Sequence record: MN850584.1
DNA: 64,000 nucleotides
Direction: 5' to 3' (one strand)
Origin: Escherichia phage arall
Below the pieces are notes generated by a model, which was not told where the DNA came from, searched no databases, and worked only from the letters and a program-made list of their open reading frames with translations. A program made the position numbers and the translations under genes. Positions 12,993 through 59,274 of the stretch are shown here, piece after piece; position 1 is the stretch's first letter, and every line of letters begins with the position of its first letter.

Positions 12993-12994
12993 AA

Positions 12995-36632: not shown

Positions 36633-36704
36633 AATTTATTATCTCCTTTGTTGTTAATTTACGTTATCTATTTTACTAATCTTTTCTACAAAGTCAAGCG
36701 TTTT

Positions 36705-37499: not shown

Positions 37500-37500
37500 A

Positions 37501-38326: not shown

Positions 38327-38526
38327 TATACACCAGCCTTAAGATCAATTAAAGCCAAAGTTGTTTCAGAGTGTGTTTGCTCGTCTACAGGTGCAGTCAT
38401 ATGATAATACAAAAAATCTTCGGCATCATACCAATCTGATTCTTGACCTTGTTTCCAACCATCAATGAAAGCATCTTCCATAATGGTTTGCAATTCTTCA
38501 CGAGTTAAGTGAATATCTTTACTCAT
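38326..38526 (-). CDS. hypothetical protein
   Basis: 66 aa acidic ORF; ATGA overlap. Confidence 0.35.
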   Translation of the reverse strand: MSKDIHLTREELQTIMEDAFIDGWKQGQESDWYDAEDFLYYHMTAPVDEQTHSETTLALIDLKAGV

Positions 38527-38759
38527 TACACATTCTCCTCTTTTACCAATTCCATCGTTGAATTGTCAAAACCATCTTTAGAAGAATAGGTATAGACAGA
38601 ACGTAGTTCTCGCAGGACAGTGAATACATTAGGATCATCTAACCAAGCATCCTGGAGGAGAACATAACGATCTTCATTGTCATACTGAACAGCAATCATA
38701 GAACCAGACAGTTTGTAAATTTTAATATTCATAATATATTTCTCCTTAAAGTAGACCAC
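38526..38759 (-). CDS. hypothetical protein
   Basis: 77 aa ORF; true start may be the internal MNIKIYKL. Confidence 0.35.
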   Translation of the reverse strand: MVYFKEKYIMNIKIYKLSGSMIAVQYDNEDRYVLLQDAWLDDPNVFTVLRELRSVYTYSSKDGFDNSTMELVKEENV

Positions 38760-39849: not shown

Positions 39850-39917
39850 TCAATTTCCTCCATATTCTTTAGTAGATGGTGATACCTCTGTACCACCATC
39901 ATAACACAAATTAAGTA

Positions 39918-40769
39918 TTAAACAAACATATCTAAATAATTTGTAGTAATAAATGCTCCATCTGCTTCCAGATTAACATAACCCGTGGTATTAGCAGTTA
40001 AGAAATCCAGATCGAAGGACTCTTTAACACCCCGTACCTCAACACGAGAGATATCGAATACAGGTAGTGTAACAGCCTCTTCGTGCAATACCGTACCTTT
40101 GTAGGTTGCCTTAATGATAAACTTGATATTACCTGTTCCAGCATCATATAAAACACTTTCAAACCCTTTGAGAGTATATTTATCACCAGAAGTGAAGTGC
40201 AAAGTTGCTTTGTTTACAGTACGTTTCTTACGAGGAGTTCCTTTCACACATTTATGATCACTACGTTTTTTGTATTTAGGAATGAATACAAACGATACAC
40301 TCTCAAGAAAGGTATCAACATCAAGGATTTTAATATCCTCTGTTGCAGCAAATTTTGAAGTCGTTGCATCAAAATGCTTTTCCCTGCGATCATACATAAA
40401 GATATCAAACCGATCTTCTAAATCAAACAAATTATGTATTTTAATTTCAGAATGCTTGCGCATTGCAGCAACCTTGAACTCTTCAAAACGTGGGTGTTCT
40501 ACAAGTTCTTCAAGTTTTACACCAAAGATAGTATATTGCTTCGAAGTCTTTTCTGGTGTTGGCATTACAGAAGCATAGTCCCCGATTGCGCTCTTAAAGC
40601 AAAATTGTTCTTGACCTGTATTTTTACCAACGAATTTACAGTATTCGTCATCGTGCATACTTTCCTTGGTAGTACCAACAAACTCAAAACCATCTTTATT
40701 CTTCTCAAGGATTTCTTGATTAAAGATCCAACCTTCCAGGCGATATACTTTACCAACTTCTAGTTTCAT
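39918..40769 (-). CDS. hypothetical protein
   Basis: 283 aa; GGAGAAACAG upstream. Confidence 0.45.
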   Translation of the reverse strand: MKLEVGKVYRLEGWIFNQEILEKNKDGFEFVGTTKESMHDDEYCKFVGKNTGQEQFCFKSAIGDYASVMPTPEKTSKQYTIFGVKLEELVEHPRFEEFKVAAMRKHSEIKIHNLFDLEDRFDIFMYDRREKHFDATTSKFAATEDIKILDVDTFLESVSFVFIPKYKKRSDHKCVKGTPRKKRTVNKATLHFTSGDKYTLKGFESVLYDAGTGNIKFIIKATYKGTVLHEEAVTLPVFDISRVEVRGVKESFDLDFLTANTTGYVNLEADGAFITTNYLDMFV

Positions 40770-40804
40770 CTGTTTCTCCTTCTTATTTAATCTGTATTAA
40801 ATTA

Positions 40805-41395
40805 TTAACGACGACGTGAGCTACTAAAACTACGTTTCGACGAAGAATAACTTTTCGAAGACTTACTATAAGAGCTAATAGGGCTTGAGTAAGACTTACG
40901 AGCAGAGTAATCACTATTCACTTTTGTTGTTGACGGGCGTGAATACGTTTGTACACTTTGCTGCTTAATTGTGTTTTGTTTAGTGGTTGTATATGTATTT
41001 CCTTGTTTATCATAAAAACTATGCTTTTGTGTTGTATATGCTTTACTGTTAGTTGTAGGAGCAGCGTTGTTATTAATAATTGTTGTGCTGCTACCACCAT
41101 CTCTATAACCGCCACCGCCACTATTACCACTCAACATATGACCAAGAAGCATACCTGTAGCAAACTCACCTACACCAGACGAACCACTGCCGCCTCCTTG
41201 CACAACAACTGTTGAAGGTTGTGCAGGTGCTGCTTGAACAACTTGAGGTGCAGGCTGGTTTACATATTGTTCATCTACCATCTGATTTGGTGTTTGTTGG
41301 TAACGTTGATTTTGTACATTTTCAGAATCATCACAACCTACCAGCAATGCACTACCTAAAACAACTGCAACAATAAAAGATTTAATGTTTTTCAT
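40805..41395 (-). CDS. lipoprotein with low-complexity Ser/Tyr/Lys-rich tail
   Basis: 196 aa from ATG at 41395 (GAGAGGG RBS); signal peptide with lipobox LVGC (MKNIKSFIVAVVLGSALLVGC); C-terminus YSSPISSYSKSSKSYSSSKRSFSSSRRR. Confidence 0.55.
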   Translation of the reverse strand: MKNIKSFIVAVVLGSALLVGCDDSENVQNQRYQQTPNQMVDEQYVNQPAPQVVQAAPAQPSTVVVQGGGSGSSGVGEFATGMLLGHMLSGNSGGGGYRDGGSSTTIINNNAAPTTNSKAYTTQKHSFYDKQGNTYTTTKQNTIKQQSVQTYSRPSTTKVNSDYSARKSYSSPISSYSKSSKSYSSSKRSFSSSRRR

Positions 41396-41588
41396 TTGTA
41401 ACCCTCTCATTTAAAGTCTCAACACAATTTTTAAAATCCCTAGAGAAACAATACATCTGTTCTCCGTTCCTGTTGATAGTAATTGTATGGTTATCAATAT
41501 ATGTTGTCAAGATAAAAATCAAACAAAACAACCCTAGAGCAAAACAAATATTTTCAAACAGAATCCAAAGAACACGTAAAACCACCAT
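41382..41588 (-). CDS. small membrane protein (candidate)
   Basis: 68 aa; GAGGTGA RBS; one hydrophobic helix (FALGLFCLIFILTTY); overlaps lipoprotein start by 14 nt. Confidence 0.3.
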   Translation of the reverse strand: MVVLRVLWILFENICFALGLFCLIFILTTYIDNHTITINRNGEQMYCFSRDFKNCVETLNERVTNEKH

Positions 41589-41599
41589 CAGATCACCTC

Positions 41600-41623
41600 A
41601 ACAAAGCCCCCCGAAGGGGCTTA
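41600..41623 (-). terminator. terminator-like hairpin after terC
   Basis: AAGCCCC-TTCGG-GGGGCTT on - strand; weak T-tract. Confidence 0.4.
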
Positions 41624-41628
41624 ATGAA

Positions 41629-42606
41629 TTAAGCAACAGTCTGGTCTTCTTTTTCAGGGAAGATTAAACTTGCAAGAACACCCAGCCCAAGAGTACCTAA
41701 CACAATATACATACTGATCGTCGGGTCAATGTGTGCTGGCAGGAAACTCATTTTTGCGTGCAGAGTTTCTGCAAACGGATGATACATCAGTTTTACACCA
41801 ACAAATACCAGGACTACGATAACTGCTTTCTCCAGATGAACCAAATACTTCAGTGCAACACTAAGAACAAAGAACAGAGCACGTAAACCTAAGATTGCAC
41901 AGAGCATCGAAGAGAACACCAGCAGAGGTTCTTGTGTCACTGCAATTACTGCTGGAACAGAGTCTACTGCAAAGATTACGTCAACCATTTCCATTACAAA
42001 CACACAAACCAGAGCCGGAGTTGCTACACGAACACCATTTTTTATTGTGAAGAACTTCTCACCATTCATCTGATCAGATACAGGGAACAGCTTACGAACA
42101 ATGCGAGTAGCCCAGTGTTTAGAGTAATCAACTTCTGCATCATCATCCCCAGCGAATACCATTTTAGCCGCACAGAAAAGGATGACAGCACCGAAGAAGA
42201 TATTAACATACCAGCCCAAACTCAACAAGTAAGTACCTACTGCTACAAACACACCTCGGAAGACAATCGCACCTGCAATACCCCAAAGTAGAATTTTGTG
42301 CTGCAAGTGTGTGCTTTTAATACCAAAACTTGCGAAGACTGCCACAAATACTACTAAGTTATCTACAGAAAGAGATTTCTCCAACACATACCCACTCAAG
42401 AACAAGCTCGCAAAATCAGCACCGTGTTGGAAGTATACAAAACCATAGTAGGCTAATGATACCCCAATCCAGAAAATTGACCAGCCAATTGCAGATTTAA
42501 ATGAAATTTCTTTGTTTTCTCTGTGTCCAAAGAAGTCAATACAAATCGACAAGACTAAAATACCCACTAAAACAACCACATCAATAATTGGGAAACCCAG
42601 TTGCAT
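41629..42606 (-). CDS. terC: TerC-family integral membrane protein
   Basis: 325 aa; multiple TM helices; hallmark YVLEKSLSVDNLVVFVAVF (E-x-SLSVDN); AGGAGA RBS. Confidence 0.7.
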   Translation of the reverse strand: MQLGFPIIDVVVLVGILVLSICIDFFGHRENKEISFKSAIGWSIFWIGVSLAYYGFVYFQHGADFASLFLSGYVLEKSLSVDNLVVFVAVFASFGIKSTHLQHKILLWGIAGAIVFRGVFVAVGTYLLSLGWYVNIFFGAVILFCAAKMVFAGDDDAEVDYSKHWATRIVRKLFPVSDQMNGEKFFTIKNGVRVATPALVCVFVMEMVDVIFAVDSVPAVIAVTQEPLLVFSSMLCAILGLRALFFVLSVALKYLVHLEKAVIVVLVFVGVKLMYHPFAETLHAKMSFLPAHIDPTISMYIVLGTLGLGVLASLIFPEKEDQTVA

Positions 42607-42683
42607 TCTTTTCTCCTCTTTAATGCGGAGGACAATCCTCCGCTCTATGTCTTATACTATAAACTGTTTTTAAAGAAAGTCAA

Positions 42684-42932
42684 CTAGTTCAGTTCTGTAA
42701 TTTTAAGTTTATCTTCTTTGTTAATGATAGGGAAAGCTACAGCATCACCTACGTCATCAATAAAGCAAATAGCAAGACCACCTTCCACTTTGCTAATCTG
42801 ACCATTAAAGGCGTGATACGGGGCAGGAACTTGATCTCCATCTTCAAGGAGAATAGCCTCGTAAACCTTGCCGATAGTACAATCACGAGTGTTTCTAAAT
42901 TTTTCAAGCACTTCAACATTTACTTTACGCAT
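42684..42932 (-). CDS. hypothetical protein
   Basis: 82 aa ORF with GAGAGGA RBS. Confidence 0.4.
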   Translation of the reverse strand: MRKVNVEVLEKFRNTRDCTIGKVYEAILLEDGDQVPAPYHAFNGQISKVEGGLAICFIDDVGDAVAFPIINKEDKLKITELN

Positions 42933-42946
42933 ATAAAAATCCTCTC

Positions 42947-43153
42947 TTATTTGTTAGATTGAAAGATACCACGGAGTACCGCAAGAATGAACGTCACACA
43001 GACTACACTCCAAAACGTTACAGGAACATGATGCCAGTCTAAGCCGATAATGTCAATCATATAGTTGTATGCTAAAAGCAGTAGCCAACTAGGGATTAAC
43101 ACAATCAAAAACACAACAATAAAACAACCTAATACTGCTAAAACACCTGCCAT
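42947..43153 (-). CDS. small two-TM membrane protein
   Basis: 68 aa; two hydrophobic helices; GGAGAAAG RBS. Confidence 0.4.
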   Translation of the reverse strand: MAGVLAVLGCFIVVFLIVLIPSWLLLLAYNYMIDIIGLDWHHVPVTFWSVVCVTFILAVLRGIFQSNK

Positions 43154-43162
43154 ACTTTCTCC

Positions 43163-43879
43163 TTATTTCAGTTTGTAAACAATTACATTTAAACCTTTGT
43201 TTACTAGAGTTTCTTCGATCATAAGTTTTACAATATTCCAAGAACCTCCAGCCAAACCACAACCAAGCATTGGTAAACCTACAATTTTACCGCCTGAAGA
43301 TACAACATCGTCTCCCATACTATCTAACGCATTGTAGATAGCTTCATAATTCAGGTCACGCTTACCTTCCTCACGACGACTATAACCATATTGTCCATAT
43401 AAATTATAAATTGTCAAATTGTTTTCTGTATACTTAGTAAACGTACCTAATTTTTTATAATCACCACGTTTAGTGGCACAATCTGCTTTAAACGCACCAG
43501 GCCACTTGCTTTTAATTTTTGGTGCAATACCACTACCCATAGTGCAAAAACAGTTACAGCAGTGTGCTATAGCGTCTATATCGCCTCTCTCGGCTGCTGC
43601 TAAAAGATCACCGTATACCTCAATGATACCTGCTAGATAACTTGTTACAATTTCATCTTCCCAGTACATTTGCTCTACACCACCGATCAGTGCAAAGTTT
43701 TGTGTAAGGCGATCATCAATATAGTTAAGACCTGAAACATACACAGCATATTCATCCTGTGCTGTAATACCTTGTACACGAATTCTTAAGACACCATCTT
43801 TATCTGTTGCTACACGCCCAAAATCTTTTTCTGTAATATTGGTGATAGGATCTCCGAAAGTCATTACTTTATTAGACAT
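43163..43879 (-). CDS. macro-domain protein (TARG1/Poa1p/DarG-like) with N-terminal extension
   Basis: 238 aa from ATG at 43879 (longer ORF would overlap upstream gene by 125 nt); AIAHCCNCFCTMGSGIA and VGLPMLGCGLAGGSWNIV parallel the two signature blocks of TARG1-type macro domains. Confidence 0.5.
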   Translation of the reverse strand: MSNKVMTFGDPITNITEKDFGRVATDKDGVLRIRVQGITAQDEYAVYVSGLNYIDDRLTQNFALIGGVEQMYWEDEIVTSYLAGIIEVYGDLLAAAERGDIDAIAHCCNCFCTMGSGIAPKIKSKWPGAFKADCATKRGDYKKLGTFTKYTENNLTIYNLYGQYGYSRREEGKRDLNYEAIYNALDSMGDDVVSSGGKIVGLPMLGCGLAGGSWNIVKLMIEETLVNKGLNVIVYKLK

Positions 43880-44729
43880 AATAATCCCCTTTAACATTAG
43901 ATTTGTTGATAATGTTGCTTTCAAAAAATTGACGTAGGAAATCAAAGTTCTCTTTATATTTTTCAATGTTATTGTAGCCTTCTGCAAGGCAACCAAAGAA
44001 CAGTTGTTCTACATAATACAAAGGAAGCTGTGAAAGTGCAATTTTAAAATCAACTTCGCTTTGACTCATTAGATACTTAATAGGACGAACCAAACATTTA
44101 GCATCAGTTTCTTGCTTAATCATTTTAATAAAAGCTGCCAGGTTATTGATATAGTTGAAGTTAAGTGCAGCTTCGGTATTGGCTTCTGTACCTTCATACT
44201 TTGCAAAGTACAGGAAAAACGTATCGTTTTCAACACCTTCTTTGTCTAAAATTTCAATAAGTTTTTCTTCGTGCGTTCCTGTAATATTAACATCATCAAT
44301 GAAAATCAGAGTTTTATTACCCCAGAAATCACGATTGATAGAGAAAGTGTCACCATCGATCAAAGCCTTACGATCTTCTTTGCTAAGAAATCCATAATCA
44401 TTGATATAGCTCACTTTACGATGAACGATATCCCACTCCACTGCTTTACCTCCTTTGATAGAGATTAGGTAGTTGAGGTGATCTACAAAATGTTCAGATA
44501 ACACTGTAGCTGCATTTTTCACATAGTTATATGGAGATGGAATAACAACAAAACTTTCATTTACCAGTCGTTCTTCATACTTGGAAAAGAAACTTTCAGC
44601 CAGAATGCGTCCCATTCTTTTTGCTGCTTGGTTACTACCAAACTTTAGTTTGGAATAATCTGCAATGTTAAATTTTGCTTCCTTCAGGTTAGTAAAAGTA
44701 TTAGCAAAATGTTGAATTTGATTACGCAT
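43872..44729 (-). CDS. phosphoribosyltransferase-like protein (type I PRT fold candidate)
   Basis: 285 aa; TLIFIDDVNITGTHEE resembles the PRPP-binding loop (hhhhDDhxxTGxT) of PRTases/PRPP synthetases; 8-nt overlap with HAD gene. Confidence 0.35.
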   Translation of the reverse strand: MRNQIQHFANTFTNLKEAKFNIADYSKLKFGSNQAAKRMGRILAESFFSKYEERLVNESFVVIPSPYNYVKNAATVLSEHFVDHLNYLISIKGGKAVEWDIVHRKVSYINDYGFLSKEDRKALIDGDTFSINRDFWGNKTLIFIDDVNITGTHEEKLIEILDKEGVENDTFFLYFAKYEGTEANTEAALNFNYINNLAAFIKMIKQETDAKCLVRPIKYLMSQSEVDFKIALSQLPLYYVEQLFFGCLAEGYNNIEKYKENFDFLRQFFESNIINKSNVKGDYYV

Positions 44730-45378
44730 TAATAAGTTCCTCTTTTTTAAGTTTAGCCAACAAGTCTTCTGGATTAATAATATGACAGAACTTCATCCCT
44801 ATGTCAACAGCTTTTCCATCATAAATCAAACTATCCCCAACGTGTAAAATCTCCTCTGGTGCGAGATCAAACGTTACCATTTCATCAAAAGAGAGTTTAA
44901 AAAACCTAGGATCTGGTTTACACAAGCAAAACTCATCAGAAAAATGCATAAAGTCAAATGGTAATTTTGTCAAGCCAGAATATACAGCTAAGAAACTACC
45001 AGGTACAAAATTGGTATTGCTTTTAATACTCAAAGAATAGGTTGAACTTAGCTCTTCCAACTTCTTGCAAAGTTCAGGGTTTAATATTGGAGGATGTTTT
45101 ATAAACATTGCTAAACAGTCTCTTTTTAACCCATCTACTTTATCAAGATCAATGTTCAAATGAGCAGAAAGTGTTTCCCAAGCATTTCTAGATGTTCCAC
45201 AAATGCCTTTTTCTGCTCTTAAATCCAGGAGAGTTTTTACTTCTTTATATACGGTAGCTGCTTCTACCTCAGAACAAGAGGCATACTCGGCAATAACCTT
45301 GTTGCGTTCTTCTGCATACAAAGGATTAGCAGTAATAAGAGTATTCCATACATCAAAAGAAATATGCTTAACAGTCAT
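44722..45378 (-). CDS. HAD-superfamily hydrolase (phosphatase candidate)
   Basis: 218 aa from ATG at 45378 (GGAGG RBS); motif I-like SFDVWNTLI and motif IV HVGDSLIYDG. Confidence 0.5.
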   Translation of the reverse strand: MTVKHISFDVWNTLITANPLYAEERNKVIAEYASCSEVEAATVYKEVKTLLDLRAEKGICGTSRNAWETLSAHLNIDLDKVDGLKRDCLAMFIKHPPILNPELCKKLEELSSTYSLSIKSNTNFVPGSFLAVYSGLTKLPFDFMHFSDEFCLCKPDPRFFKLSFDEMVTFDLAPEEILHVGDSLIYDGKAVDIGMKFCHIINPEDLLAKLKKEELINA

Positions 45379-45380
45379 TT

Positions 45381-45536
45381 TTAATCCTCCGTCCAAAAGA
45401 ATATCATCTGCTTAATTTTATTGATCTCTTGATGTAGTAACTTTCCAGCATGTGATTGATCTTTAATATTGACAGCAAGAATTTCAAGCTCCGTTAGTTT
45501 TTCTTGGATAGCTTTATATTCATCATCTGTAAGCAT
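45381..45536 (-). CDS. small coiled-coil protein (below ORF-track size cutoff)
   Basis: 51 aa; AAAGGGGA RBS; stop overlaps HAD start (ATGA-type coupling). Confidence 0.3.
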   Translation of the reverse strand: MLTDDEYKAIQEKLTELEILAVNIKDQSHAGKLLHQEINKIKQMIFFWTED

Positions 45537-45547
45537 TTTCTTCCCCT

Positions 45548-45739
45548 TTAGAATGGTAATCTTTGTATGTCACTTATCCCCACACCAAGAAGTCTAGCAA
45601 TATCCTTATCTAAAAGCAACTCTTTTTGTTCTAAAATGTTAATCAGATCTCCTAATACTTCTTTAATGTCACGATCATTTTTAGCAACGTGACCACCTGC
45701 GGTATCAACTTTATCTTTAAAAACAAAATAATGATCCAT
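45548..45739 (-). CDS. hypothetical protein
   Basis: 63 aa from internal ATG (MDHYFVF) with GGAGGG RBS; the longer start lies inside the terminator hairpin. Confidence 0.35.
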   Translation of the reverse strand: MDHYFVFKDKVDTAGGHVAKNDRDIKEVLGDLINILEQKELLLDKDIARLLGVGISDIQRLPF

Positions 45740-45749
45740 AATACCCTCC

Positions 45750-45780
45750 ATATAAATAAAGGAGGCTTTCGCCTCCTTTT
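45750..45780 (-). terminator. rho-independent terminator after AAA ATPase gene
   Basis: AAAGGAGGC-GAAA-GCCTCCTTT hairpin followed by ATTTATAT on - strand. Confidence 0.55.
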
Positions 45781-45785
45781 ATCAC

Positions 45786-46946
45786 TTAGTAAGAACGACC
45801 ACCAAACACATACTCTGTGTAGTTTTTACGTTCTTTGTTTTTAATAACAACTTCAATGTTGTTACCTTTATCATCGGTGAACATAAAGTGATAGCCGTCA
45901 CCACCCATTGTACGAATGTGTTTTTCATCATACGTTAGCAAGATACGGTCTACACCCCAGTAGTAGTCACCTTCTTCATCTTTATCTTCTACGGTAACAA
46001 TCCCTTCCATTTCAGGAAGATGCTCTTCACCTAGTTTATGGTCTACAGCTACAACATAACGATTACCGCTAAACAAACCTTGTGCTGTCATACCGTCAAT
46101 ATCGGTATCTGACGAAACATCTCCTGTACGATCTACACCGTTAACTTTCAGAAGTTTAACCTCTTTTGCAGCATAGCGGTGTTCAGTAATACTGATACCC
46201 ATCAATGCAAGTGCATCAGAGAATTTGTCATTAGGGTAACGGTTAAGTTCTTCTACTAATGACTGAACAATATCAAAGTTCAAATCCACGGAGAGATTAT
46301 AAAGCGTTTCAAAATCTGGTAAGAAGGCTTTGTTCTCCAGATTTTTAGCCAGATAATCATCCATAGTAGCTTTAGGTAGTTTCTTATAGCTAAAACTGTA
46401 GAAAATACGGCTAGGACGATTACGCAAAAATTCTGATACATAACCATCATTTTTAGTCAATACAAACAGTTTGTCGTAGCCACCAACACCATCCAGCAGG
46501 GTAAGCAAACCATCTTGTGCATCTTTTTCAGCATACAGTTTATCAAATTCATCGATCATAATCATCACAGGTTGTGTGATTTTAGACATAAAATTGATAA
46601 AGCCTTCACCATTAAAAGCACTACCGATAGAAATAGTAGGAATACCCATTTCACGAAGAGCAGAAGACAGCATTTTAGCTTGCAAAGTTTTACCGCTACC
46701 TTTCGTACCTTCAAGGAGAACACCTGTGTTTTTACCTTTGCGGCTAAGGAACGTTTTGATAATACGTTCTGATTTATCATCAGTATCACCGTATGTTACT
46801 GAAGGGACTTCCATATCGTTTTTAGGATACAGGAAGAACTCACCACTTTGAGTAACACCTACACCAAAAGTTCCTGCTGGAATTTCTTCAATATCTGTAC
46901 CAGATTTCTGACGCAGAAAGATTTGATTGCCGAATACTGTAAACAT
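45786..46946 (-). CDS. classic-clade AAA ATPase, copy 1
   Basis: 386 aa; Walker A GTKGSGKT, Walker B MIMIDEFDK, sensor-1 TKN, SRH-like EFLRNRPSRIF; paralog of 62965->64000. Confidence 0.6.
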   Translation of the reverse strand: MFTVFGNQIFLRQKSGTDIEEIPAGTFGVGVTQSGEFFLYPKNDMEVPSVTYGDTDDKSERIIKTFLSRKGKNTGVLLEGTKGSGKTLQAKMLSSALREMGIPTISIGSAFNGEGFINFMSKITQPVMIMIDEFDKLYAEKDAQDGLLTLLDGVGGYDKLFVLTKNDGYVSEFLRNRPSRIFYSFSYKKLPKATMDDYLAKNLENKAFLPDFETLYNLSVDLNFDIVQSLVEELNRYPNDKFSDALALMGISITEHRYAAKEVKLLKVNGVDRTGDVSSDTDIDGMTAQGLFSGNRYVVAVDHKLGEEHLPEMEGIVTVEDKDEEGDYYWGVDRILLTYDEKHIRTMGGDGYHFMFTDDKGNNIEVVIKNKERKNYTEYVFGGRSY

Positions 46947-46966
46947 AGTTTTCTCCTCTATTTAAT

Positions 46967-47437
46967 TTAGTCAGATTCCCAAATGTTGTCTTTCTTAACC
47001 CACATTCGTTGATTATCTGAACCTCTATAACGTTTCGTTGTTGGTTGATTCATATCATACTTACCATCTATCACTATGTCAACCAGTTTTTTAATTTTCT
47101 CTGGAATTTCTTCAAAAAGATATCCTGTATATAAGACAATATCTTTTTTGTTTCCAAAACAATCTCTTACCTTCTCAAGAACATACTCTACAGTGTCAAT
47201 GTTCTCTTTGTCAAGAGGTTCACCACCTAAAACTGTTAATCCTTTAATGAAAGGTCGAGATAAATCTTCCAAGATAAGATCTAATGTTTCAGCAGTGAAC
47301 TCTTGTCCGTAGTTATACGACCAGGCTTTCTGGTTAAAGCAGCCACGGCAACCGTGGCTACAACCGCTCACCCACAAAGAGCATCTTACACCGTCACCGT
47401 TGAGCATGTCAACAGGTTCATATCCGGCGTAATTCAA
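46967..47437 (-). CDS. nrdG: anaerobic ribonucleotide reductase activating protein
   Basis: 156 aa; radical-SAM cluster motif CSHGCRGC (CxxxCxxC); overlaps nrdD stop. Confidence 0.75.
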   Translation of the reverse strand: MNYAGYEPVDMLNGDGVRCSLWVSGCSHGCRGCFNQKAWSYNYGQEFTAETLDLILEDLSRPFIKGLTVLGGEPLDKENIDTVEYVLEKVRDCFGNKKDIVLYTGYLFEEIPEKIKKLVDIVIDGKYDMNQPTTKRYRGSDNQRMWVKKDNIWESD

Positions 47438-48375
47438 AAGTGTTTCTCCCTTTCTAGTACCTCTTGCATTTTACCTTTATTATAAGGGCGAGAGTTAGGG
47501 GCAGAAAGGTATCCTGACACTCTTCTGATCACAGATATGGATTCTTCTTCGTGATTACCGCAACTTGGACACTCGAAGCCTTTAGCTGTTGCCTTAAATT
47601 CACCATGAAAACCACATTTGAAACACTGATCTACAGGTTGGTTCACGCCAAAATAAGGGATTTTGTTGTAGGCATAATCTACAAGAGTTTCCAGTGCTTG
47701 CAAGTTATTTTTAAGGTTCGGTGTTTCTACATAACCTATGTTCCCACCATTACTAATTTGTGCAAAACCTTCCTCATAATCCCACTTTTGGAACGGGGTA
47801 GTGTGCATCCATACAGGTTGATGGAAAGAGTTTGTCAAGTAGTCACGATCAATAGAGCCAGGATAGCGATCATTTAACGCTTTGGCAAATTTATAGCACA
47901 AGGATTCTGCTGGTGTTCCATACAAACTAAAAGCTAAACCAGAACGTTCTTTAAATGTGCAACAGATATCCTTCATATATTGAAGGATGTTTTTACCCAT
48001 TGCTTTTGGATTGGTGTTACCTGGGTATAAAATCTCCATAGCTTCTGCTAAACCTACATAACCGATACTAATAGAGGCATAACCACCTTCGAATAGCTTA
48101 CCAATCTCTTCATTAGCTTCTAGTCGAGCTAAAGCCCCTTCCATAAACAATGTAGGGTTTTGAGATGCTTTGGTATGTCTAATACGGTTAACACGTAGCA
48201 TATGTGCCTTATACGCCATCTCCATATGTTGTTCCAACAGTTCAGTAAATAAGATGCCCTTTTCACGGGACTCTGCTGCAATGATAGGTAAGTTTAAAGA
48301 AACTACGCCTAAGTTGAAACGACCATCATATTTTTCACCTTGCTCTGTTGCATAGTATGACAAGAAACTTCTACA
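47434..48375 (-). CDS. nrdD: anaerobic ribonucleoside-triphosphate reductase, exon 2
   Basis: Begins CRSFLSYYATEQGEKYDGRFNLGVVSLNLP; C-terminal glycyl-radical region RRVSGYL and Zn ribbon CFKC…CPSC; the ORF-track start (GTG at 48405) is intron read-through; junction approximate. Confidence 0.7.
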   Translation of the reverse strand, partial: CRSFLSYYATEQGEKYDGRFNLGVVSLNLPIIAAESREKGILFTELLEQHMEMAYKAHMLRVNRIRHTKASQNPTLFMEGALARLEANEEIGKLFEGGYASISIGYVGLAEAMEILYPGNTNPKAMGKNILQYMKDICCTFKERSGLAFSLYGTPAESLCYKFAKALNDRYPGSIDRDYLTNSFHQPVWMHTTPFQKWDYEEGFAQISNGGNIGYVETPNLKNNLQALETLVDYAYNKIPYFGVNQPVDQCFKCGFHGEFKATAKGFECPSCGNHEEESISVIRRVSGYLSAPNSRPYNKGKMQEVLEREKHF

Positions 48376-49144
48376 CATTATGTTCAAAGTGGCTCGCAAG
48401 GCCACTCCCGCACCATTACGTGCTGCTGCATGTCACCATGCAGATCAGACTATATCTTCATGCTTAAAGCATGTCTACCATTTGGGGTGTCATAGGCTTA
48501 CACCCTACGCTGCTACATTCATCACAGCTAGTCGTTAGGCATTTCGTAACAGAACTCATAATCATAATTATTTGGTGCTCCGCGCTTTAAGATTGCAGAT
48601 ATTCTTTTTCTGTCCAACCCTAAAGCGTCAGCACAACATCTCAGACTTTTAAAGTAAAAAACTTCACCAGTAGCCTTATGAGTAGCTTTTACACTGTGAC
48701 ACCTTGTGTAGAAAGCATAACAGTTATTATCGTAACCCTCTTGCGTGTTGTCTGGACAAGATCCCCACTCAAGATTGTATACACTGTTGTCTTTCCTATT
48801 GTCACCTTTATGCTTCACATAAGGTAAATTGTCTGGATTGGGTAAAAACGCTTCAGCTACAAGTCTGTGCACCCGAAAGCAAACAGTTTTCTTGTTTTTA
48901 CGTATTCTGACAAGTTGGTATCCTGTGTTTATTTCTTCCCACGAGCGAAGGATTCTTTCATCCTTATACCTGGTACAATAAACATTTCCAAGCTCGTCAA
49001 TTTCATACCCTTCAAAATCACGAATTTGTTTTCTCATACCAGTACCCCCTTCTTCTGTGTTGGGAGTTCTGTTACGTTTAGCACGGGATTGTCTCGTTGA
49101 GAGTTCCCCCGTTTAGGCAGATTTTACATGAGCAGTTATAGTTT
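48376..49144 (-). mobile_element. group I intron interrupting nrdD
   Basis: 769 nt between …ATGGGT (exon ends in U) and TGT…; ends in G; contains P/Q-like pair (CUAAACGGGGGAAC / AAUCCCGUGC) 5' of the endonuclease ORF and R/S-like elements (CCUAACGACUAGC / GAAGAUAUAGUC) 3' of it. Confidence 0.65.
48528..49037 (-). CDS. intron-encoded HNH homing endonuclease
   Basis: 169 aa; FEGYEIDELGNVYCTRYKD…YQLVRI…VHRLVAEAF…KHKGDNRKDNSVYNLEW typical of HNH_3-type homing endonucleases; stop codon falls inside the R element. Confidence 0.65.
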   Translation of the reverse strand: MRKQIRDFEGYEIDELGNVYCTRYKDERILRSWEEINTGYQLVRIRKNKKTVCFRVHRLVAEAFLPNPDNLPYVKHKGDNRKDNSVYNLEWGSCPDNTQEGYDNNCYAFYTRCHSVKATHKATGEVFYFKSLRCCADALGLDRKRISAILKRGAPNNYDYEFCYEMPND

Positions 49145-50002
49145 ACCCATGCTTGTGACGCGACCATCTGAAGATCCTGTAACTTCTTTGTTTAAAGGTA
49201 CAGAGATAAAATCAGGATAAATGCGTTCAGCACAACACTCCATTGCCAGTTGCTTCAAATCATAGTTTGGATCGCCAGCTTTCATGTTAACACCATCTTC
49301 CAAGAAGAAGATAACTTTAGGAAACACAGGAGTTACCCTATCTTTTCCTAATCCTTGTTTGTGCACCATTAGGTAGTTTTTAGTGATCATTCTACCAAAA
49401 GCAGAGGTATCCAAACCTAAACTAATTGTTATAAAAGGTGACTGACCATTTACACTCATTAGAGTGTTCACCTGGTAGATTAAAGTTTGCATTGCATCAT
49501 AGACCTGTTTATCTACCATACGCATAGCAATATCATAATCGCCAACATCGGCATATATTTTATTAAAACTTGCTTTAACGTATTGACTAAGCCCAGTATC
49601 AACATGTGCACAAGTTTGTCCACCATATTGGCTAGAAGCTACTGCTTGAATAATTTGAGTTAGGACAGTAGTCGCTACACCGATAGATTTTGGTTTTTCA
49701 ATATGTGCATTACCAATACGGAAACCGTTCTCAAGCATATCTTGGTAATTTACCAGGCAACAATTAGTTAAAGGTGAGAGTAAATAATCTAAATCGTGAA
49801 TGTGACCATACCCACTTTTATGCCATTCTGCCAGATCTTCCGGTAAAATATGGGTCATTGCCATGTGCTTGCTTAGGATACCTGCTAGTAAGTCTCGGTG
49901 AGTATTAACAATCATTGCAGGTTTGTTTGCATTTTCACGAGTAAATTCTTCGGATGTTTGTTCGAGGAATCCGATTACATCCTCATATAGTTTTTGGGTC
50001 AT
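49145..50002 (-). CDS. nrdD: anaerobic ribonucleoside-triphosphate reductase, exon 1
   Basis: N-terminal NrdD portion ending …DGRVTSMG; the last two ORF-track codons (KL*) are intron-derived; GGAGG RBS. Confidence 0.7.
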
Positions 50003-50011
50003 TAATCCTCC

Positions 50012-50044
50012 GTGGAAAATAAAAGCCAGCTTAATGCTGGCTTT
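50012..50044 (-). terminator. rho-independent terminator upstream of nrdD
   Basis: AAAGCCAGC-ATTAA-GCTGGCTTT hairpin followed by TATTTTCC on - strand. Confidence 0.55.
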
Positions 50045-50091
50045 AGGGTGGATCTTTATTTTAAATCTTTTTCGTAAGATTGTCCTTGATC

Positions 50092-51042
50092 TTAGTCAAG
50101 GTTTTTGGTAATACGTGTACAACCGTCAGAAGTCAAACCGTCAACTTGAGTTTCCCAAGTGCCATGAATATTTCGGAACAATGTTGTTACACCTTTTGGT
50201 TCATTAATAATGATTGCCATAACAAGTTTAGGATCGATAACAGACATAATCTTTTCCTCAATACCCTCTGTAATAACATTATTGCGCACAATATTAATTG
50301 CATCTTCTTGTACAGTAAGAGCACTTACATTCTTAAGAGTATATACCTGCTGTGTAGTGTAAATGATACGAACATAGCTTACAGAACGAGTAGGCACAGG
50401 TTTACGCGGTCGGCGAAAACGTGGTTTTGGTGAAGATTCAGTCTTACTTTCATTTTTTGAATAATACTCCTCAAACAGTTTAGTAAATGTTTTTACATCA
50501 ACTACAAACCGATCTTTCCTATATGGAGAATTCTTATGTGCACCATTAATACCACTGTTTTCATCGAAGAAAGTAATGTTTTCTTCAGTTGAATACATTA
50601 GATAATGATCTGCATTTTTCCAATGTGGTTGTGGACAACGAGGATTACAAACGGAAAGCAGATAACTAATATCTTCTTCCGTGGCATCAGTATCCAGGAA
50701 ACACGTATTATGCACAGTCAGTTGTACTTTTTCAGCCATATCTTTTTCTTTATCCTCTTTAGCAAGATATTCAGTACGAATAATCTCCAGAAAACCTTCA
50801 GGTGTTACTTCCATAAATTTATATTCAGGATGAAGCTCCATATATTCAAATCCACAACCATCTAATTGCTGTAGGAAGTTAGGGTAGAAGAACAAATCAT
50901 TAACACTGTGAATCAGATCATTGATTTCTGCTTCAGTTGTGTAACCAAAACTCTTGTGAATTGCTTCGTTAAGAATATGCAGGATACCCATCTCTTCTGC
51001 TGCTTTTTTAACTTCCAGTTTATTAGCGTAAAATGCAATCAT
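50092..51042 (-). CDS. hypothetical protein
   Basis: 316 aa; basic Pro-rich linker (PKPRFRRPRKPVPTR) between two domains. Confidence 0.45.
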   Translation of the reverse strand: MIAFYANKLEVKKAAEEMGILHILNEAIHKSFGYTTEAEINDLIHSVNDLFFYPNFLQQLDGCGFEYMELHPEYKFMEVTPEGFLEIIRTEYLAKEDKEKDMAEKVQLTVHNTCFLDTDATEEDISYLLSVCNPRCPQPHWKNADHYLMYSTEENITFFDENSGINGAHKNSPYRKDRFVVDVKTFTKLFEEYYSKNESKTESSPKPRFRRPRKPVPTRSVSYVRIIYTTQQVYTLKNVSALTVQEDAINIVRNNVITEGIEEKIMSVIDPKLVMAIIINEPKGVTTLFRNIHGTWETQVDGLTSDGCTRITKNLD

Positions 51043-51059
51043 TATGTTCTCCTTCTAAA

Positions 51060-51494
51060 TTAGTTTAAAATTTCTTTGGCAATGGTAGAAGCAAGTTTTC
51101 CATCATATTGATTAGGATACTCTGCTTTAAGGTGTTTCATCATATCTGGCATTTTCTTGCCTGTCAAGGCAAATTCTTCAGCAATCGCTCGAAGGTCATC
51201 TTCAGATAGCATTTCTGGTAAATATTTTTCCAGGGTGGTGATATCCCGCATAGCTCGCTCACATTTGCTAATGGAGGCATTAACTTTCTTAAGCGAGTCT
51301 AGTTCCTCTTTAGCGTGTGCAATACCAATCTTAACAATGTTAATCATAATATCATCTTCTGATTTATTCAGATTTGCCTTTTGAGTACGAGCAAGGTCAA
51401 ACTCACCAATAATATTAGTTAACAAAGCAAAAGCACCCTTATCGGTTGTACGTGCTAAGATACGATCTGCTTTCATTTGTGTCACAATAGACAT
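51060..51494 (-). CDS. GatB/YqeY-domain protein
   Basis: 144 aa; C-terminal KYLPEMLSEDDLRAIAEEFA…KKMPDMMKHLKAEYPNQYDGKLASTIAKEIL fits the YqeY pattern. Confidence 0.5.
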   Translation of the reverse strand: MSIVTQMKADRILARTTDKGAFALLTNIIGEFDLARTQKANLNKSEDDIMINIVKIGIAHAKEELDSLKKVNASISKCERAMRDITTLEKYLPEMLSEDDLRAIAEEFALTGKKMPDMMKHLKAEYPNQYDGKLASTIAKEILN

Positions 51495-51506
51495 TCTATT
51501 CTCCTC

Positions 51507-52079
51507 TTATTTGCCAATGCTTTGAATCTTATTTACAACACGGTTTATTGCCAGTGAAGCCCTAGGCTCCGCAATACCTGTTGCATAGATATAAGGATGA
51601 CCTTTTGGAGACTCCCTCATACCGAATGAACCTAATTCTAAACCATATTCATCCTCTACGTCAACCCCAATATTAGTGGGTACTAAATATGTTTTAACTC
51701 CATAATAAGTAGAGAAGAAACAGCGCATAGAGTTAGCATACTCTTCAATTGTAGCATCAGGGTAGAACTCAATCAACTCCAATTTCAAGAAAATATTAAA
51801 ATGGGTATCATCTAAATTTTCTTCTGTACGGTAACATGGCGTTAGTGCCATATACGGATTACCTGCTGCAAATTCAAAACCATCCTTCTCCATTTGCAGG
51901 AAAGATTGTTCTGCACTAGCTACATAGTATTTACCGTTAGGATGCCCTAATGGGCGATCCTCTTTATTTTCTGGTAGTGTGTACGCCAGTATATCAGCAT
52001 CCACGAGATATGGAACTTCTAACATTTGTGCAAATCGACCATAGTACTCAATAGCTTGAGCTATTACTGCAACATTCAT
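51507..52079 (-). CDS. hypothetical protein (enzyme-like, unassigned)
   Basis: 190 aa; no motif recognised. Confidence 0.45.
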   Translation of the reverse strand: MNVAVIAQAIEYYGRFAQMLEVPYLVDADILAYTLPENKEDRPLGHPNGKYYVASAEQSFLQMEKDGFEFAAGNPYMALTPCYRTEENLDDTHFNIFLKLELIEFYPDATIEEYANSMRCFFSTYYGVKTYLVPTNIGVDVEDEYGLELGSFGMRESPKGHPYIYATGIAEPRASLAINRVVNKIQSIGK

Positions 52080-52327
52080 GATCGACCTCCATTGCGGAAT
52101 GCACGTTTAGTAATGTTTGACATAGTGATCAAATCTTGAAGCGTCATATCAGGAAAATGCTGTTCAAGAACACCTTCAACAGCGCCTACAATATCTGATA
52201 ACTCAATAAGTTGCATCAGCTTGCAATCTTGATCAATAGCATCTTGAAGTTCATAAAGCTCTTCTTGAATCTTAGCAACAGAACCATATTCCTCTTTGCT
52301 AATCTCCTTCAAATGATACCCTGCCAC
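52076..52327 (-). CDS. small MazG/HisE-like all-alpha NTP pyrophosphohydrolase (candidate)
   Basis: 83 aa; EELYELQDAI…LIELSDIVGAVE resembles the EExxE…ELxD metal-binding helices. Confidence 0.3.
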   Translation of the reverse strand: MAGYHLKEISKEEYGSVAKIQEELYELQDAIDQDCKLMQLIELSDIVGAVEGVLEQHFPDMTLQDLITMSNITKRAFRNGGRS

Positions 52328-52337
52328 TTTAACCCCC

Positions 52338-55112
52338 TTAGTTTACCAGTTTATTTATATCTGGTAAAAGATTTATTTCACCTAAGAAATCACCTTCACC
52401 TTCCTCTAGCCAACTCTCATATGCTTGTGCATGATTATAGTTACCATCAAAAGAATCTGCAACAAATTTTTCTACAGTTTTTCGAGATGTGCCAGCGCCA
52501 AATACACCAAGTTTAATACCATTGATCGGTAAAGTGGTGCTTGTGGGTACTTTCTCTGTTGCAACACGGTTGATATCTATAATCTCCTGTACGGTTGTAT
52601 TCCATTGTAAGCATTTAACACAACGGGTGTGCGCTACATACAGTAGGTTTCGCTCTGCCTCTTCCAGTCCTACCCATTCACCAGTCTTTTTATCATAGTT
52701 GGAAGGAAAATCATTAGCAACAATAACCTGATCCCACTCCAAACCTTTAGACTTGTGTGCTGTAGTAAGTGTGACTTTTGCTGTAGGAGAATTTCTATGC
52801 GTTCTAAGTGTATGTGCTATAGTGTTTGCCTTACCAGAAACTACGATGTTTAACAAGCGTTTAGCATCTGGATCAGCCTCTGCACACTCAACAAATTCAT
52901 CCCAGTCTGCGTAAGGTAATACAGTTTCATGTTTTACTTTCTCAATATCTCCTCTCCGAAGAGCATTAACACTATCTACCATAGAGATAAAATCCCTGGT
53001 ATCTACGTTAATAATAATTTCTTCCCCATCTGCAATACGATCCATTGCCTCCATAAGCAAGGTTAAATTCTTGCGAAAGATGATAGTGTAAGGTTTTGTA
53101 TAGTCTACAACATCTGATTTGTAGCTACCTACTACAGTATCAAAGCCTTTACCAACCAAAGGGTGACGCAAAGGTTCTTTATCGCTTAAAATCATATTGG
53201 CAATGTTTGCCACTTTGGGGCCAAAACGGAAGCAAGCAGTTAATGGAAGCTCTGCCCCATACTTAGCTGTTTCAATCATCATATTAGAGCTACCTCTAAA
53301 TTGATAAATGCAGTTGTGGCTAAGAATTTCATTGCCAAAGAAGTTAGCAGTATCCTCTACTTCAATATCATAATAGATACCCTCACTATCTACAATGTCC
53401 ACAATCTCTTCTGCCGTTACAGTATCACCATCTTTTACCAACACAGACATGCCTTTAAACAAACCCGCTGCCGGAATTAAGTTATATTTGGCACTGTTCA
53501 CAGAGGACATGCATTCTTTTAAAGATGCAAACGGAACTATTTCAAGGATCTTTTGTGCAAAACTCAATGCTTCACGATAAGAATTGAAATATTTACGTAC
53601 ACGGTAACGACCTTCCAATTTAGCAGCACTTACGCTTACACCTGCTTTAATCAGTGAAGAATAGATCGGCATTTCACTTTCTGTCCACTCAAAACTAACT
53701 TGTGTTCCTTTACAACTTTGTGCTCGCAAAGTCACTGTTAGCATTTTTCTTTCATCTACTGCACAATTGATGCTGTGCCAGTGTGGATAAGCAAAATGAT
53801 AATCTTTATCCTCTAAAAGTTTAAAACCATTTTGTCCGAATTGTTCAAAGATGTTATTGATCCTTTCTTGATTAATGCCGCGTGAACTTGCTTCAAATAC
53901 ACAAGTAGGAATGCCATATTGTAAACTGTATGCCATTTCTTTTTCCATAGCAGCTTCACGGTTTTCAACAATATCCAACACCCATAATTTCTGTGCTTTT
54001 TCAGAACGTGTACGTTGCCCCAGTTTAGAAAAACCTTCTTTATCATCGAATTTGTTAGTGATCCCTACTCGGAAACCTAAATCTTTCCTCCACATTAGGT
54101 ATACCACCATCTGATCATCTTTCAGAACATAGGATGAAGCCCAAATACGATGGTTATGTGTCATATCTAAAGTTTTACCTGTGGCAGTAATAATATTCCT
54201 ACCTTTTGTACGTGTAGATAAAGTCTTATTTGTTACTTTTCTAAATGTAACTTTACCATTAGAGTAAGACTCTACCTTATCACCGATTTGCAGGTCTTTC
54301 ATTGTAACCTGACCATTCTCGGTATTAAGTACCGTGTTTTCCGACACACATTGGAATTCATCGCCCACTACCACAATTTGTTTTGCAGATTTAGCATTTC
54401 GCAGAATAGACAAGAATGCAGGGTTAACATCCTGGAATTCATCACCAAAAATAATATCATAACCAAGATCAGCACCAGACAATTCAAACAATTTTACATA
54501 GGTGTCATGCGTCATCAAAGTATCTGTATTAGGATCAATGCGCTCTCGCCACAATTGTTTTGCATACTTAACTACTTCTGTAATTAGTTTGTGTTCGTTA
54601 ATACCTTTTCTTTTAATATCTGCAAGATGTACACTAGGAAAATGTTTACGGCTGATAAAAGGATCATCCGAAAATTCAAACTTACCTACGGTTTGTTTGA
54701 TCATTAAACCAATCATAGCACGAGTTAACAGTGTTTTCCCTCGTTTATCAATAAGATTATTAATCTTAAATTTCTTTGCTATCTCGCTACCTGTACCTGC
54801 AACGTTAACATACTGTCCTTCTGGTCGTGACAGTTTTGCACGTAAACGATGATCCAGGAATTGATAGCAAATAGAATGCAATGTACGGCATTCTACATTT
54901 AGTGGCATCTTACGTCGTGCTTCTTCTGCCATGCTTTTATTGAAAGCTAAGTAAAGAATGCGATCTTCTGTACTGTTAGCCAGCAAATAAAGTGTTGACG
55001 TTTTGCCTGATCCAGATTTAGCTTGGATAGTTAAAAAGCGATGGTCTGGAAAAGCCTCCTTAATAGCTGTTTGCTCTTCTGTTGGAGTGAAGCTCAACTC
55101 TTTCTTAGCCAT
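52338..55112 (-). CDS. SF1 (UvrD/Rep-like) DNA helicase, intein-containing
   Basis: Start set at MAKKELSF (GAGG RBS); Walker A AKSGSGKT, motif II FGDEFQD, motif III VVVGDEFQ/CIYQFRGSS split by the intein, motif VI-like TAHKSKGLEWDQV. Confidence 0.7.
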   Translation of the reverse strand: MAKKELSFTPTEEQTAIKEAFPDHRFLTIQAKSGSGKTSTLYLLANSTEDRILYLAFNKSMAEEARRKMPLNVECRTLHSICYQFLDHRLRAKLSRPEGQYVNVAGTGSEIAKKFKINNLIDKRGKTLLTRAMIGLMIKQTVGKFEFSDDPFISRKHFPSVHLADIKRKGINEHKLITEVVKYAKQLWRERIDPNTDTLMTHDTYVKLFELSGADLGYDIIFGDEFQDVNPAFLSILRNAKSAKQIVVVGDEFQCVSENTVLNTENGQVTMKDLQIGDKVESYSNGKVTFRKVTNKTLSTRTKGRNIITATGKTLDMTHNHRIWASSYVLKDDQMVVYLMWRKDLGFRVGITNKFDDKEGFSKLGQRTRSEKAQKLWVLDIVENREAAMEKEMAYSLQYGIPTCVFEASSRGINQERINNIFEQFGQNGFKLLEDKDYHFAYPHWHSINCAVDERKMLTVTLRAQSCKGTQVSFEWTESEMPIYSSLIKAGVSVSAAKLEGRYRVRKYFNSYREALSFAQKILEIVPFASLKECMSSVNSAKYNLIPAAGLFKGMSVLVKDGDTVTAEEIVDIVDSEGIYYDIEVEDTANFFGNEILSHNCIYQFRGSSNMMIETAKYGAELPLTACFRFGPKVANIANMILSDKEPLRHPLVGKGFDTVVGSYKSDVVDYTKPYTIIFRKNLTLLMEAMDRIADGEEIIINVDTRDFISMVDSVNALRRGDIEKVKHETVLPYADWDEFVECAEADPDAKRLLNIVVSGKANTIAHTLRTHRNSPTAKVTLTTAHKSKGLEWDQVIVANDFPSNYDKKTGEWVGLEEAERNLLYVAHTRCVKCLQWNTTVQEIIDINRVATEKVPTSTTLPINGIKLGVFGAGTSRKTVEKFVADSFDGNYNHAQAYESWLEEGEGDFLGEINLLPDINKLVN
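53313..54350 (-). mobile_element. intein (346 aa) inserted in helicase motif III
   Basis: N-terminal CVSENTVLNTENG, block B-like MTHNH, C-terminal …EILSHN followed by extein Cys; removing it restores VVVGDEFQ-CIYQFRGSS. Confidence 0.6.
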
Positions 55113-55113
55113 T

Positions 55114-55590: not shown

Positions 55591-55598
55591 ATTTCCCC

Positions 55599-56114: not shown

Positions 56115-56135
56115 TATATTTTCCTTATTGGTTTG

Positions 56136-57580: not shown

Positions 57581-57581
57581 T

Positions 57582-58332: not shown

Positions 58333-58342
58333 AGTCTACTCC

Positions 58343-59271: not shown

Positions 59272-59274
59272 AAA

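Follow-up and report, generated by a model that had tools for sequence, protein, structure and literature searches.

Two paralogous classic-clade AAA ATPases with strongly diverged C-terminal domains in a Justusliebigvirus coliphage

Two ATPase genes on opposite strands

We analyzed a 64,000-nt stretch of Escherichia phage arall (sequence record MN850584.1), hereafter the window, which carries two genes for AAA ATPases, named copy 1 and copy 2, 16 kb apart and on opposite strands (Table 1). The window belongs to Justusliebigvirus (phi92/VEcB-like E. coli myophages of the Stephanstirmvirinae), with relatives such as SD2, VEcB, Nernie and the phi92 group, and the DNA region around both genes is 98-99% identical to Justusliebigvirus phages of E. 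coli. The list of open reading frames (ORFs) and their translations places both genes at the positions given in an earlier note on this DNA, which was made from the sequence alone. A Shine-Dalgarno element, GGAG, stands 7 nt ahead of the copy 1 ATG at 46946, and AGGGGG precedes the copy 2 ATG at 62965. Copy 2 is cut by the window end, and the earlier note had allowed for a stop just past this edge. This is not the case: the ORF of phage Nernie, at 98.9% DNA identity, continues for another 30 codons and yields a 375-residue product (L002:8964-10091). A protein cluster of the same length as the full copy 2 (P0079, 375 residues) is 99% identical to it, and in the alignment its C-terminal end coincides with that of the family. 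The genes and their family are already present in public databases; proteins 100% identical to copy 1 are found in phages BME3 and AMO3598, where they are labeled 'ATPase' or 'hypothetical protein'.

The two genes are true paralogues, and their products have the same three-domain order. BLASTP aligns residues 2-253 of copy 1 with residues 3-256 of copy 2, with 119 identities over 254 positions (47%), 70% positives and an E-value of 5e-82. This span comprises the N-terminal β domain, the entire ATPase core and the helical lid, so that the likeness far exceeds generic P-loop motifs, to which, according to the earlier note, it might have been confined. Both products are also full-length matches of the same PHROG profile, phrog_2376: copy 1 with an E-value of 5.8e-104 (residues 1-376 on positions 2-359 of 363) and copy 2 with 4.7e-107 (residues 1-325 on positions 1-337 of 363), the latter being limited by the window end. 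Read directly in both products, the Walker A (GTKGSGKT), Walker B (DEFDK) and sensor-1 (LTKN) segments are identical, and the segment resembling the second region of homology (SRH) differs by one residue, RNRPSR in copy 1 and LNRPSR in copy 2; the near-identity of these four segments had been noted before.

The AlphaFold model of copy 1 (pLDDT, the predicted local distance difference test, of 87.3) is composed of a five-stranded N-terminal β domain (residues 1-45), an AAA α/β core with a four-helix lid (residues 55-250) and a β-rich C-terminal domain. The strands of the N-terminal domain (residues 2-5, 8-11, 17-19, 26-31 and 37-41) are predicted with pLDDT values of 86-96; the domain is conserved between the copies from residue 2 onward, and Leu39, Pro48, Tyr52 and Gly53 are nearly invariant in the family. 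The last ~130 residues of the two proteins, in turn, give no BLASTP alignment, and the suspicion that the C-terminal domains differ proved well founded. They are nevertheless homologous at the profile level: when profiles of the copy-1-type and copy-2-type C-termini were compared with hhalign, they aligned over 115 columns with a probability of 94.3%, an E-value of 1e-7 and 19% identity. Thus, one three-domain architecture is common to both proteins, with a third domain that is very divergent. This domain is family-specific: when 1.84 billion representative proteins were searched with its profile, it was matched confidently only at the end of PHROG 2376-type ATPases, and the family alignments of the domain contain no conserved catalytic-looking residues.

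Table 1. Features of the ATPase genes and of their surroundings in the window
Feature	Position	Strand	Basis or remark
Copy 1, complete gene, 386-residue AAA ATPase	45786-46946	-	ORF and translation; stop codon 45786-45788
Copy 1, small N-terminal β domain, residues 1-50, five predicted strands	46797-46946	-	AlphaFold2 secondary structure
Copy 1, AAA module, residues 55-250	46197-46784	-	invariant alignment columns, PDB profile search, Foldseek
Copy 1, β-rich C-terminal domain, residues 255-386, family-specific	45789-46184	-	
Copy 2, paralogous AAA ATPase, first 345 of 375 codons; ORF open at window end	62965-64000	+	translation
Copy 2, C-terminal domain, N-terminal two thirds, residues 257-345 of 375	63733-64000	+	profile-level homology
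Terminator-like GC-rich hairpin and T-rich tail	45758-45779	-	AAAGGAGGCGAAAGCCTCCTTT then ATTTAT; 9 pairs
Tentative sigma-70-like promoter match inside nrdG	47054-47082	-	TTGACA-17-TATGAT, 11/12 matches
TerD	36039-36632	-	
vWA-TerF-like (PF10138)	36708-37499	-	sole vWA in the window; 8.3 kb from copy 1
TelA	38749-39849	-	
TerC	41632-42606	-	
Macro-domain protein with N-terminal extension	43166-43996	-	1.8 kb downstream of copy 1
ComF-like phosphoribosyltransferase (PRTase)	43875-44729	-	
HAD hydrolase	44725-45396	-	

Assignment to the classic AAA clade

The AAA motifs of copy 1 are Walker A (Gly80-Thr87), Walker B (Asp132-Glu133) followed by Lys136 and Tyr138, LLTLLDG (147-153), sensor-1 (Asn166) and the SRH (Arg177-Pro-Ser-Arg180). 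In a family alignment of 48 sequences that includes both copies, Gly80, Gly83, Gly85, Lys86, Asp132, Glu133, Asp152, Gly153, Asn166, Arg177, Pro178 and Arg180 are invariant, as are the DEF(D/E)K-x-Y segment, Leu148, Asp152 and Gly153 of LLTLLDG and, in the helical lid, Phe224-Asp225 and Glu232-Glu233-x-Asn235. Every catalytic residue is kept in both copies. Position 111, which corresponds to pore loop 1 and is a phenylalanine in copy 1, is aromatic in 45 of the 48 sequences. The SRH residues Arg177-Pro178-Ser179-Arg180 align with the RPGR of p97, and the lid carries no sensor-2 arginine; by our reading of the alignment, its Phe224-Asp225 pair may be comparable with the G-A-D of classic AAA proteins.

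The top Pfam match of both copies is PF00004, with 29.4 bits for copy 1 and 39.1 bits for copy 2 at a cut-off of 21.2. When the PDB was searched with the profile of the family alignment, the top 60 matches were all Cdc48/p97, VAT, NVL, Rix7, AFG2 or PEX1 (E-values 4e-12 to 2e-6); the two best of these alignments reach the LLTxxDG motif (LLTlLDG on LLTLMDG) and one extends to RPSR on RPGR. Single-sequence searches of the PDB matched fidgetin-like, spastin, Msp1, katanin and PAN. In a Foldseek search with the copy 1 model, the top 50 PDB matches were all Bcs1, Rpt, YjoB, Mpa, Drg1/AFG2, NVL, FtsH or NSF, the best being Bcs1 (E-value 1.7e-8 over ~253 aligned columns), with YjoB at 4.3e-7. Since PF00004, the PDB profile search, Foldseek and the motifs agree, the assignment of the ATPase module to the classic AAA clade, already proposed from the motifs, is well supported. 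Sequence profiles favor the Cdc48 type and structure favors Bcs1, and therefore no sub-clade is assigned.

The resemblance to Bcs1 could suggest a different function, in which the ATPases would be BCS1-like assembly chaperones that bind and move folded phage proteins in membrane-proximal virion assembly. Such a role has been proposed for 'phage BCS1 orthologs' in jumbo phages (Iyer et al. 2021, PMC7824862), and close relatives of the present family do occur in the jumbo phages GAP32, BF, XbC2 and Atu_ph07; that study gives no accession by which its proteins could be confirmed to be those of PHROG 2376. Besides the top Foldseek match to Bcs1, the good score of YjoB speaks for this possibility. 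The Foldseek E-values of Bcs1, however, lie within about tenfold of those of Rpt, YjoB and NVL, the sequence profile prefers the Cdc48/p97 type, and the genes stand among small early-type or metabolic genes, outside the structural module (window 1-22000). The BCS1_N domain and a membrane segment are likewise missing, as detailed below, and we consider a BCS1-like assembly chaperone unlikely.

A replication-type AAA+ protein (helicase loader, clamp loader or Hda-like) acting on DNA replication proteins is very unlikely. Its traces are weak clamp-loader or DnaC-like PHROG matches (E-values 1e-5 to 1e-9), the NCBIfam models Hda, RuvB and IstB, and the position of copy 1, which adjoins helicase, YqeY and ribonucleotide reductase genes. 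These matches are, however, much weaker than those to phrog_2376 and PF00004; the clamp-loader PHROGs give E-values of 1e-5 to 1e-8 at best, and the NCBIfam scores fall far below the family cut-offs (Hda 29.8 against 194.8 bits, IstB 19.9 against 200, RuvB 19.8 against 299); the RPxR and LLTxxDG motifs and the top structural matches point to the classic clade and not to the clamp-loader or initiator clades.

Public labels for the two genes in related phages vary: 'ATPase', 'hypothetical protein', 'putative ATPase or Zn metalloprotease' and 'FtsH-like protease'. The two protease labels are misannotations that stem from AAA-domain similarity, because neither copy has an HExxH motif, a membrane segment or a match to Peptidase_M41 at E ≤ 1. 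Mislabeled GenBank records include MZ501100 (PaulScherrer), KU522583 (ECGD1), MH675927 and LR865361. A membrane segment was sought in both copies and none was found, the highest 19-residue Kyte-Doolittle hydropathy being 1.0. The copies are not strict BCS1 orthologues either: BCS1_N gives no match at E ≤ 1, a hydrophobic segment is absent, and the resemblance to Bcs1 is limited to the fold of the AAA region. The MoxR type, represented by AAA_5, was also rejected: at a cut-off of 22, it scores 14.5 bits in copy 1 and 22.7 bits in copy 2, well below PF00004 in both.

Distribution, duplication history and gene neighborhood

A tblastn search detected the PHROG 2376-type family in 302 phage records. 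They comprise the Stephanstirmvirinae, the jumbo phages GAP32, BF, fHe-Yen9, XbC2 and Atu_ph07, Salmonella phage 7-11, phages of Aeromonas, Acinetobacter and Proteus, Bacillus Herelleviridae, Lactococcus phage 949 and its relatives, and Lactobacillus, Staphylococcus and crAss-like phages. At least 351 loci of the family were confirmed in IMG/VR, and the family is restricted to phages. Among the records listed, every carrier of a copy 1 orthologue (identity ≥75%) has two tblastn places, while Phapecoctavirus records have one; the two-copy state is found in all listed Justusliebigvirus and related Klebsiella-phage records, which makes the duplication a genus-wide trait. The earlier description of a duplicated classic AAA ATPase as unusual for a phage therefore holds in part: most phages with the family carry a single copy, but the family is widespread and two copies are fixed throughout the genus.

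A neighbor-joining tree built on the conserved 253 residues with 200 bootstraps recovers a copy 2 clade that includes the single Phapecoctavirus gene (100%) and a copy 1 core clade (100%); their union is separated from the jumbo-phage clade with 78% support. The gene order follows the same division. The single ATPase of Phapecoctavirus tuntematon is placed like copy 2, between small ORFs and a CapR/T5orf172 endonuclease. A metagenomic protein 57% identical to copy 1 (P0038) is placed like copy 1, in the order UvrD helicase, YqeY, two ORFs and ATPase, with TerC further on. As tree and synteny agree, the duplication is old; copy 2 stands at the site that is ancestral for the subfamily, and copy 1 is the extra copy.

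Paralogous classic-clade AAA proteins often form hetero-hexamers, and the two copies could thus constitute one more elaborate machine, a mixed ring like Pex1/Pex6, Yta10/Yta12 or Rpt1-6, and not two machines. In agreement with this, the conserved part is the ring-forming motor (47% identity), and both copies are always kept together in the Justusliebigvirus records listed. Most phages of the family, including those of the sister genus Phapecoctavirus, have a single copy, however, so that homo-oligomers must work. The two genes lie on opposite strands, 16 kb apart and in different clusters, with no evident coordinated expression, and the catalytic motifs of both are complete, whereas many hetero-rings contain a degenerate partner. 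A mixed ring is, by this balance, quite improbable.

On the (-) strand, the genes follow one another in the order helicase, YqeY, nrdD ORFs with an HNH ORF, nrdG, copy 1, the hairpin of Table 1, two small ORFs, HAD hydrolase, ComF-like PRTase, Macro, TerC, TelA, vWA-TerF-like and TerD. In the direction of transcription, copy 1 thus comes directly after nrdG and upstream of the HAD, PRTase, Macro and Ter genes, and not directly after the Ter/macro island as had been stated. Nor does copy 2 lead the (+) strand cluster, which begins near 61405 and of which it is about the fifth or sixth gene. The terminator-like hairpin begins 7 nt 3′ of the copy 1 stop codon; it is the sole such site in 45300-47600, yet about one is expected from shuffled sequence, and it constitutes weak evidence. 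The sigma-70-like match, which precedes the copy 1 start by ~110 nt, is a lead only, the number of such matches in the region not being greater than the shuffled expectation.

The genes from HAD hydrolase to TerD form a nearly complete 'Ter system' island in a virulent coliphage (36039-45396, (-) strand), and the same set is present in Phapecoctavirus, with ~65% protein identity for the PRTase. Anantharaman et al. 2012 described this gene set, and Iyer et al. 2021 (PMC7824862) noted its presence in phages. The Phapecoctavirus island (HAD, PRTase, macro, TerC and TelA) has an unrelated 201-residue ORF at the place of copy 1, and copy 1 is therefore not obligatory to the Ter island. This bears on a pairing of the ATPase with the vWA protein, as earlier suggested, in which copy 1 would be a working part of the Ter/vWA/Macro island and form an AAA-vWA chaperone pair. 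Copy 1 does adjoin the island, with its HAD, PRTase, Macro, TerC, TelA, vWA-TerF and TerD genes, and the copy-1-type P0038 also has TerC within 8 kb. The vWA protein, however, is a TerF-type component of the Ter system at a distance of 8.3 kb, the ATPase is not MoxR-like, and the terminator-like hairpin stands between copy 1 and the island genes; of all the explanations weighed here, this pairing is the least plausible and can hardly be credited.

Further upstream on the (-) strand, the anaerobic ribonucleotide reductase gene nrdD is broken up into three ORFs (50092-51042, 49136-50002 and 47434-48405; 47434-51042 overall). An ORF for an HNH/NUMOD-like homing endonuclease (48528-49037) lies between the second and the third of them, and no group I intron was detected at the Rfam gathering threshold in 44000-64000. 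The YqeY-like protein (51063-51494, (-) strand) is labeled 'tRNA amidotransferase' in VEcB, which looks doubtful; the same applies to the 'histidyl tRNA synthetase' label of an adjoining 190-residue ORF, which has no Pfam match (both genes lie within 51063-52079).

In complete relatives, the genes after copy 2 encode a CapR x3/T5orf172 endonuclease and then a NADAR-domain protein. In phage Nernie, these two genes lie past the right end of the window (L002, 10166-11887) and encode a 390-residue CapR x3 + T5orf172 'endonuclease' and a 183-residue NADAR-domain protein. The NADAR family is linked to ADP-ribose processing.

Neighboring genes were also compared across 80 diverse IMG/VR loci by clustering every ORF located up to 6 kb from the ATPase gene. 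The commonest neighbors are NAMPT/NadV (18 loci, within 5 kb), a macro-like family that includes the Macro ORF of the window (17 loci) and NMNAT-Nudix (12 loci). In 7 loci, the gene immediately before the ATPase is NadV, in the same orientation and 74-95 nt away, and NMNAT-Nudix is found further upstream in the 12. The NadV-adjacent loci (L023, L045, L048, L052, L054, L065 and L075, at ~4400-7100 in each) carry an NAD+ salvage pair and come from one environmental lineage. In L009, the metagenomic locus that carries P0038, the ATPase is followed after 3.6 kb by a gene (12792-14105) for a 437-residue protein with a WGR domain and with regulatory and catalytic PARP domains; this gene occupies the place of the window HAD, PRTase and Macro genes. 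Phage 7-11 has genes for a ribose-phosphate pyrophosphokinase and a nicotinamide PRTase 3-5 kb downstream of its ATPase.

These neighbors raise the question of a counter-defense or host-takeover factor in NAD+/ADP-ribose conflicts, which might, for example, dismantle host effectors that deplete NAD or act by ADP-ribosylation, or might process ADP-ribosylated proteins. The Macro gene downstream of copy 1, the NADAR gene two genes after copy 2 in Nernie, the PARP-domain gene near P0038, NadV in 18 of the 80 loci and the phage 7-11 pair all fit such a factor. However, the NadV-linked loci form one 60%-identity linkage group, that is, essentially one lineage plus phage 7-11; no neighbor family exceeds 18 of the 80 loci, and the literature search returned no anti-defense report. 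Because the NadV linkage amounts to about one lineage and large phages often have their accessory genes in clusters in any case, the proximity of NAD+/ADP-ribose genes is a lead and not evidence, and we regard this role as doubtful. The remodeling or degradation of host defense proteins, proposed in the earlier note, is likewise purely speculative. The same doubt attaches to the broader speculation that PHROG 2376 may be a phage unfoldase or disassemblase for host takeover or counter-defense, possibly linked to NAD+/ADP-ribose, which would have been duplicated in Justusliebigvirus, with its C-terminal domain re-tooled for two different targets.

Proposed function and relation to known AAA systems

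We favor, with a probability of roughly 0.55, the interpretation that the two genes are old paralogues of a phage-specific classic-clade AAA family whose products are ring-forming protein remodelers, specialized to different clients or partners. Each protein would assemble into a ring in which Arg177 and Arg180 complete the ATP site of the neighboring subunit. ATP hydrolysis would then drive the remodeling, pulling apart or unfolding of a protein client, as expected for members of this clade, the client being engaged in part through the conserved aromatic residue at the pore-loop-1 position. The N-terminal domain and the motor would carry out the common work, and the C-terminal domain would adapt each copy to its own client or docking partner; the 47% identity of the former, against 19% in the latter, is what suggests specialization after duplication. 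Copy 2 has remained at the ancestral position among small, presumably early genes, and copy 1 is the extra copy, located between the replication and nucleotide genes and the Ter/Macro island.

Several observations weigh against this interpretation. In the classic clade, a short helical insert between β2 and α2 carries pore loop 1, with an aromatic residue, a hydrophobic residue and a glycine. The copy 1 model consists here of a strand (104-107), a loop and a helix (114-121), and no separate short β2/α2 helix is evident in its DSSP string. The pore-loop-1 motif is only partly kept in the family alignment, as Tyr or Phe followed by Thr, Ser or Asn and then Asp or Gly, and gaps in the alignments indicate that the segments at pore loops 1 and 2 do not reach the length seen in Cdc48/p97. 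It is consequently not assured that an unfolded chain is threaded. The census of the 80 IMG/VR loci yielded no conserved partner or client gene, and the literature search found no experiments or papers on the PHROG 2376 family. Lastly, the divergence of the C-terminal domain may reflect mere relaxed constraint instead of new specificity.

This analysis extends the existing records in several ways: the ATPase module is firmly placed in the classic clade; the FtsH, Zn-protease, BCS1-orthologue and MoxR-vWA readings are rejected; the C-terminal domains prove to be homologous, though strongly diverged, and family-specific; and the history of the duplication is traced. Cellular relatives of this motor extract, unfold or disassemble protein complexes. 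If the favored interpretation is true, large virulent phages of Gram-negative and Gram-positive hosts, including crAss-like gut phages, have a classic-clade AAA remodeling motor of their own, and its clients, once found, would extend the known mechanisms of phage takeover or assembly by a class in which specific proteins are dismantled at the expense of ATP. The Justusliebigvirus pair, with the same motor and differing C-terminal domains, offers a convenient natural system for this purpose. The practical gain is modest for now: the protease labels should be dropped and the family described as soluble three-domain classic AAA ATPases.

Among known systems, the nearest are the other members of PHROG 2376 (phi92 gp190, the phAPEC8 ATPase, Salmonella phage 7-11 gp125 and Serratia phage BF_0375). 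Both copies belong to this family and have the same three-domain architecture; the family label is 'ATPase' only, and most phages have one copy, against two in Justusliebigvirus. With Cdc48/p97, VAT, NVL, AFG2 and PEX1, the copies share Walker A and B, LLTxxDG, the sensor-1 asparagine, the double arginine of RPxR and the lack of a sensor-2 arginine. FtsH has an AAA module of the same clade and is among the Foldseek matches, but it possesses membrane segments and an M41 peptidase domain, which are absent from copies 1 and 2. A MoxR-type AAA protein is the usual partner of vWA proteins, and the co-occurrence of an AAA+ ATPase and a vWA protein in one genome region recalls such pairs; here, however, the ATPase is of the classic clade, the vWA is of the distant TerF type, and the vWA-TerF-like gene is kept in relatives without copy 1. 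Bcs1, the mitochondrial AAA translocase of the folded Rieske protein, forms a heptameric ring. Bcs1 and B. subtilis YjoB give the best structural superposition of the N-proximal region and the AAA module (Foldseek), and the likeness lies in the arrangement, since in each case a family-specific N-domain is followed by one AAA module. Bcs1 differs from the phage proteins by its transmembrane anchor and BCS1_N domain, by an identity of 15-19%, and by the absence of the C-terminal β domain that both phage copies carry.

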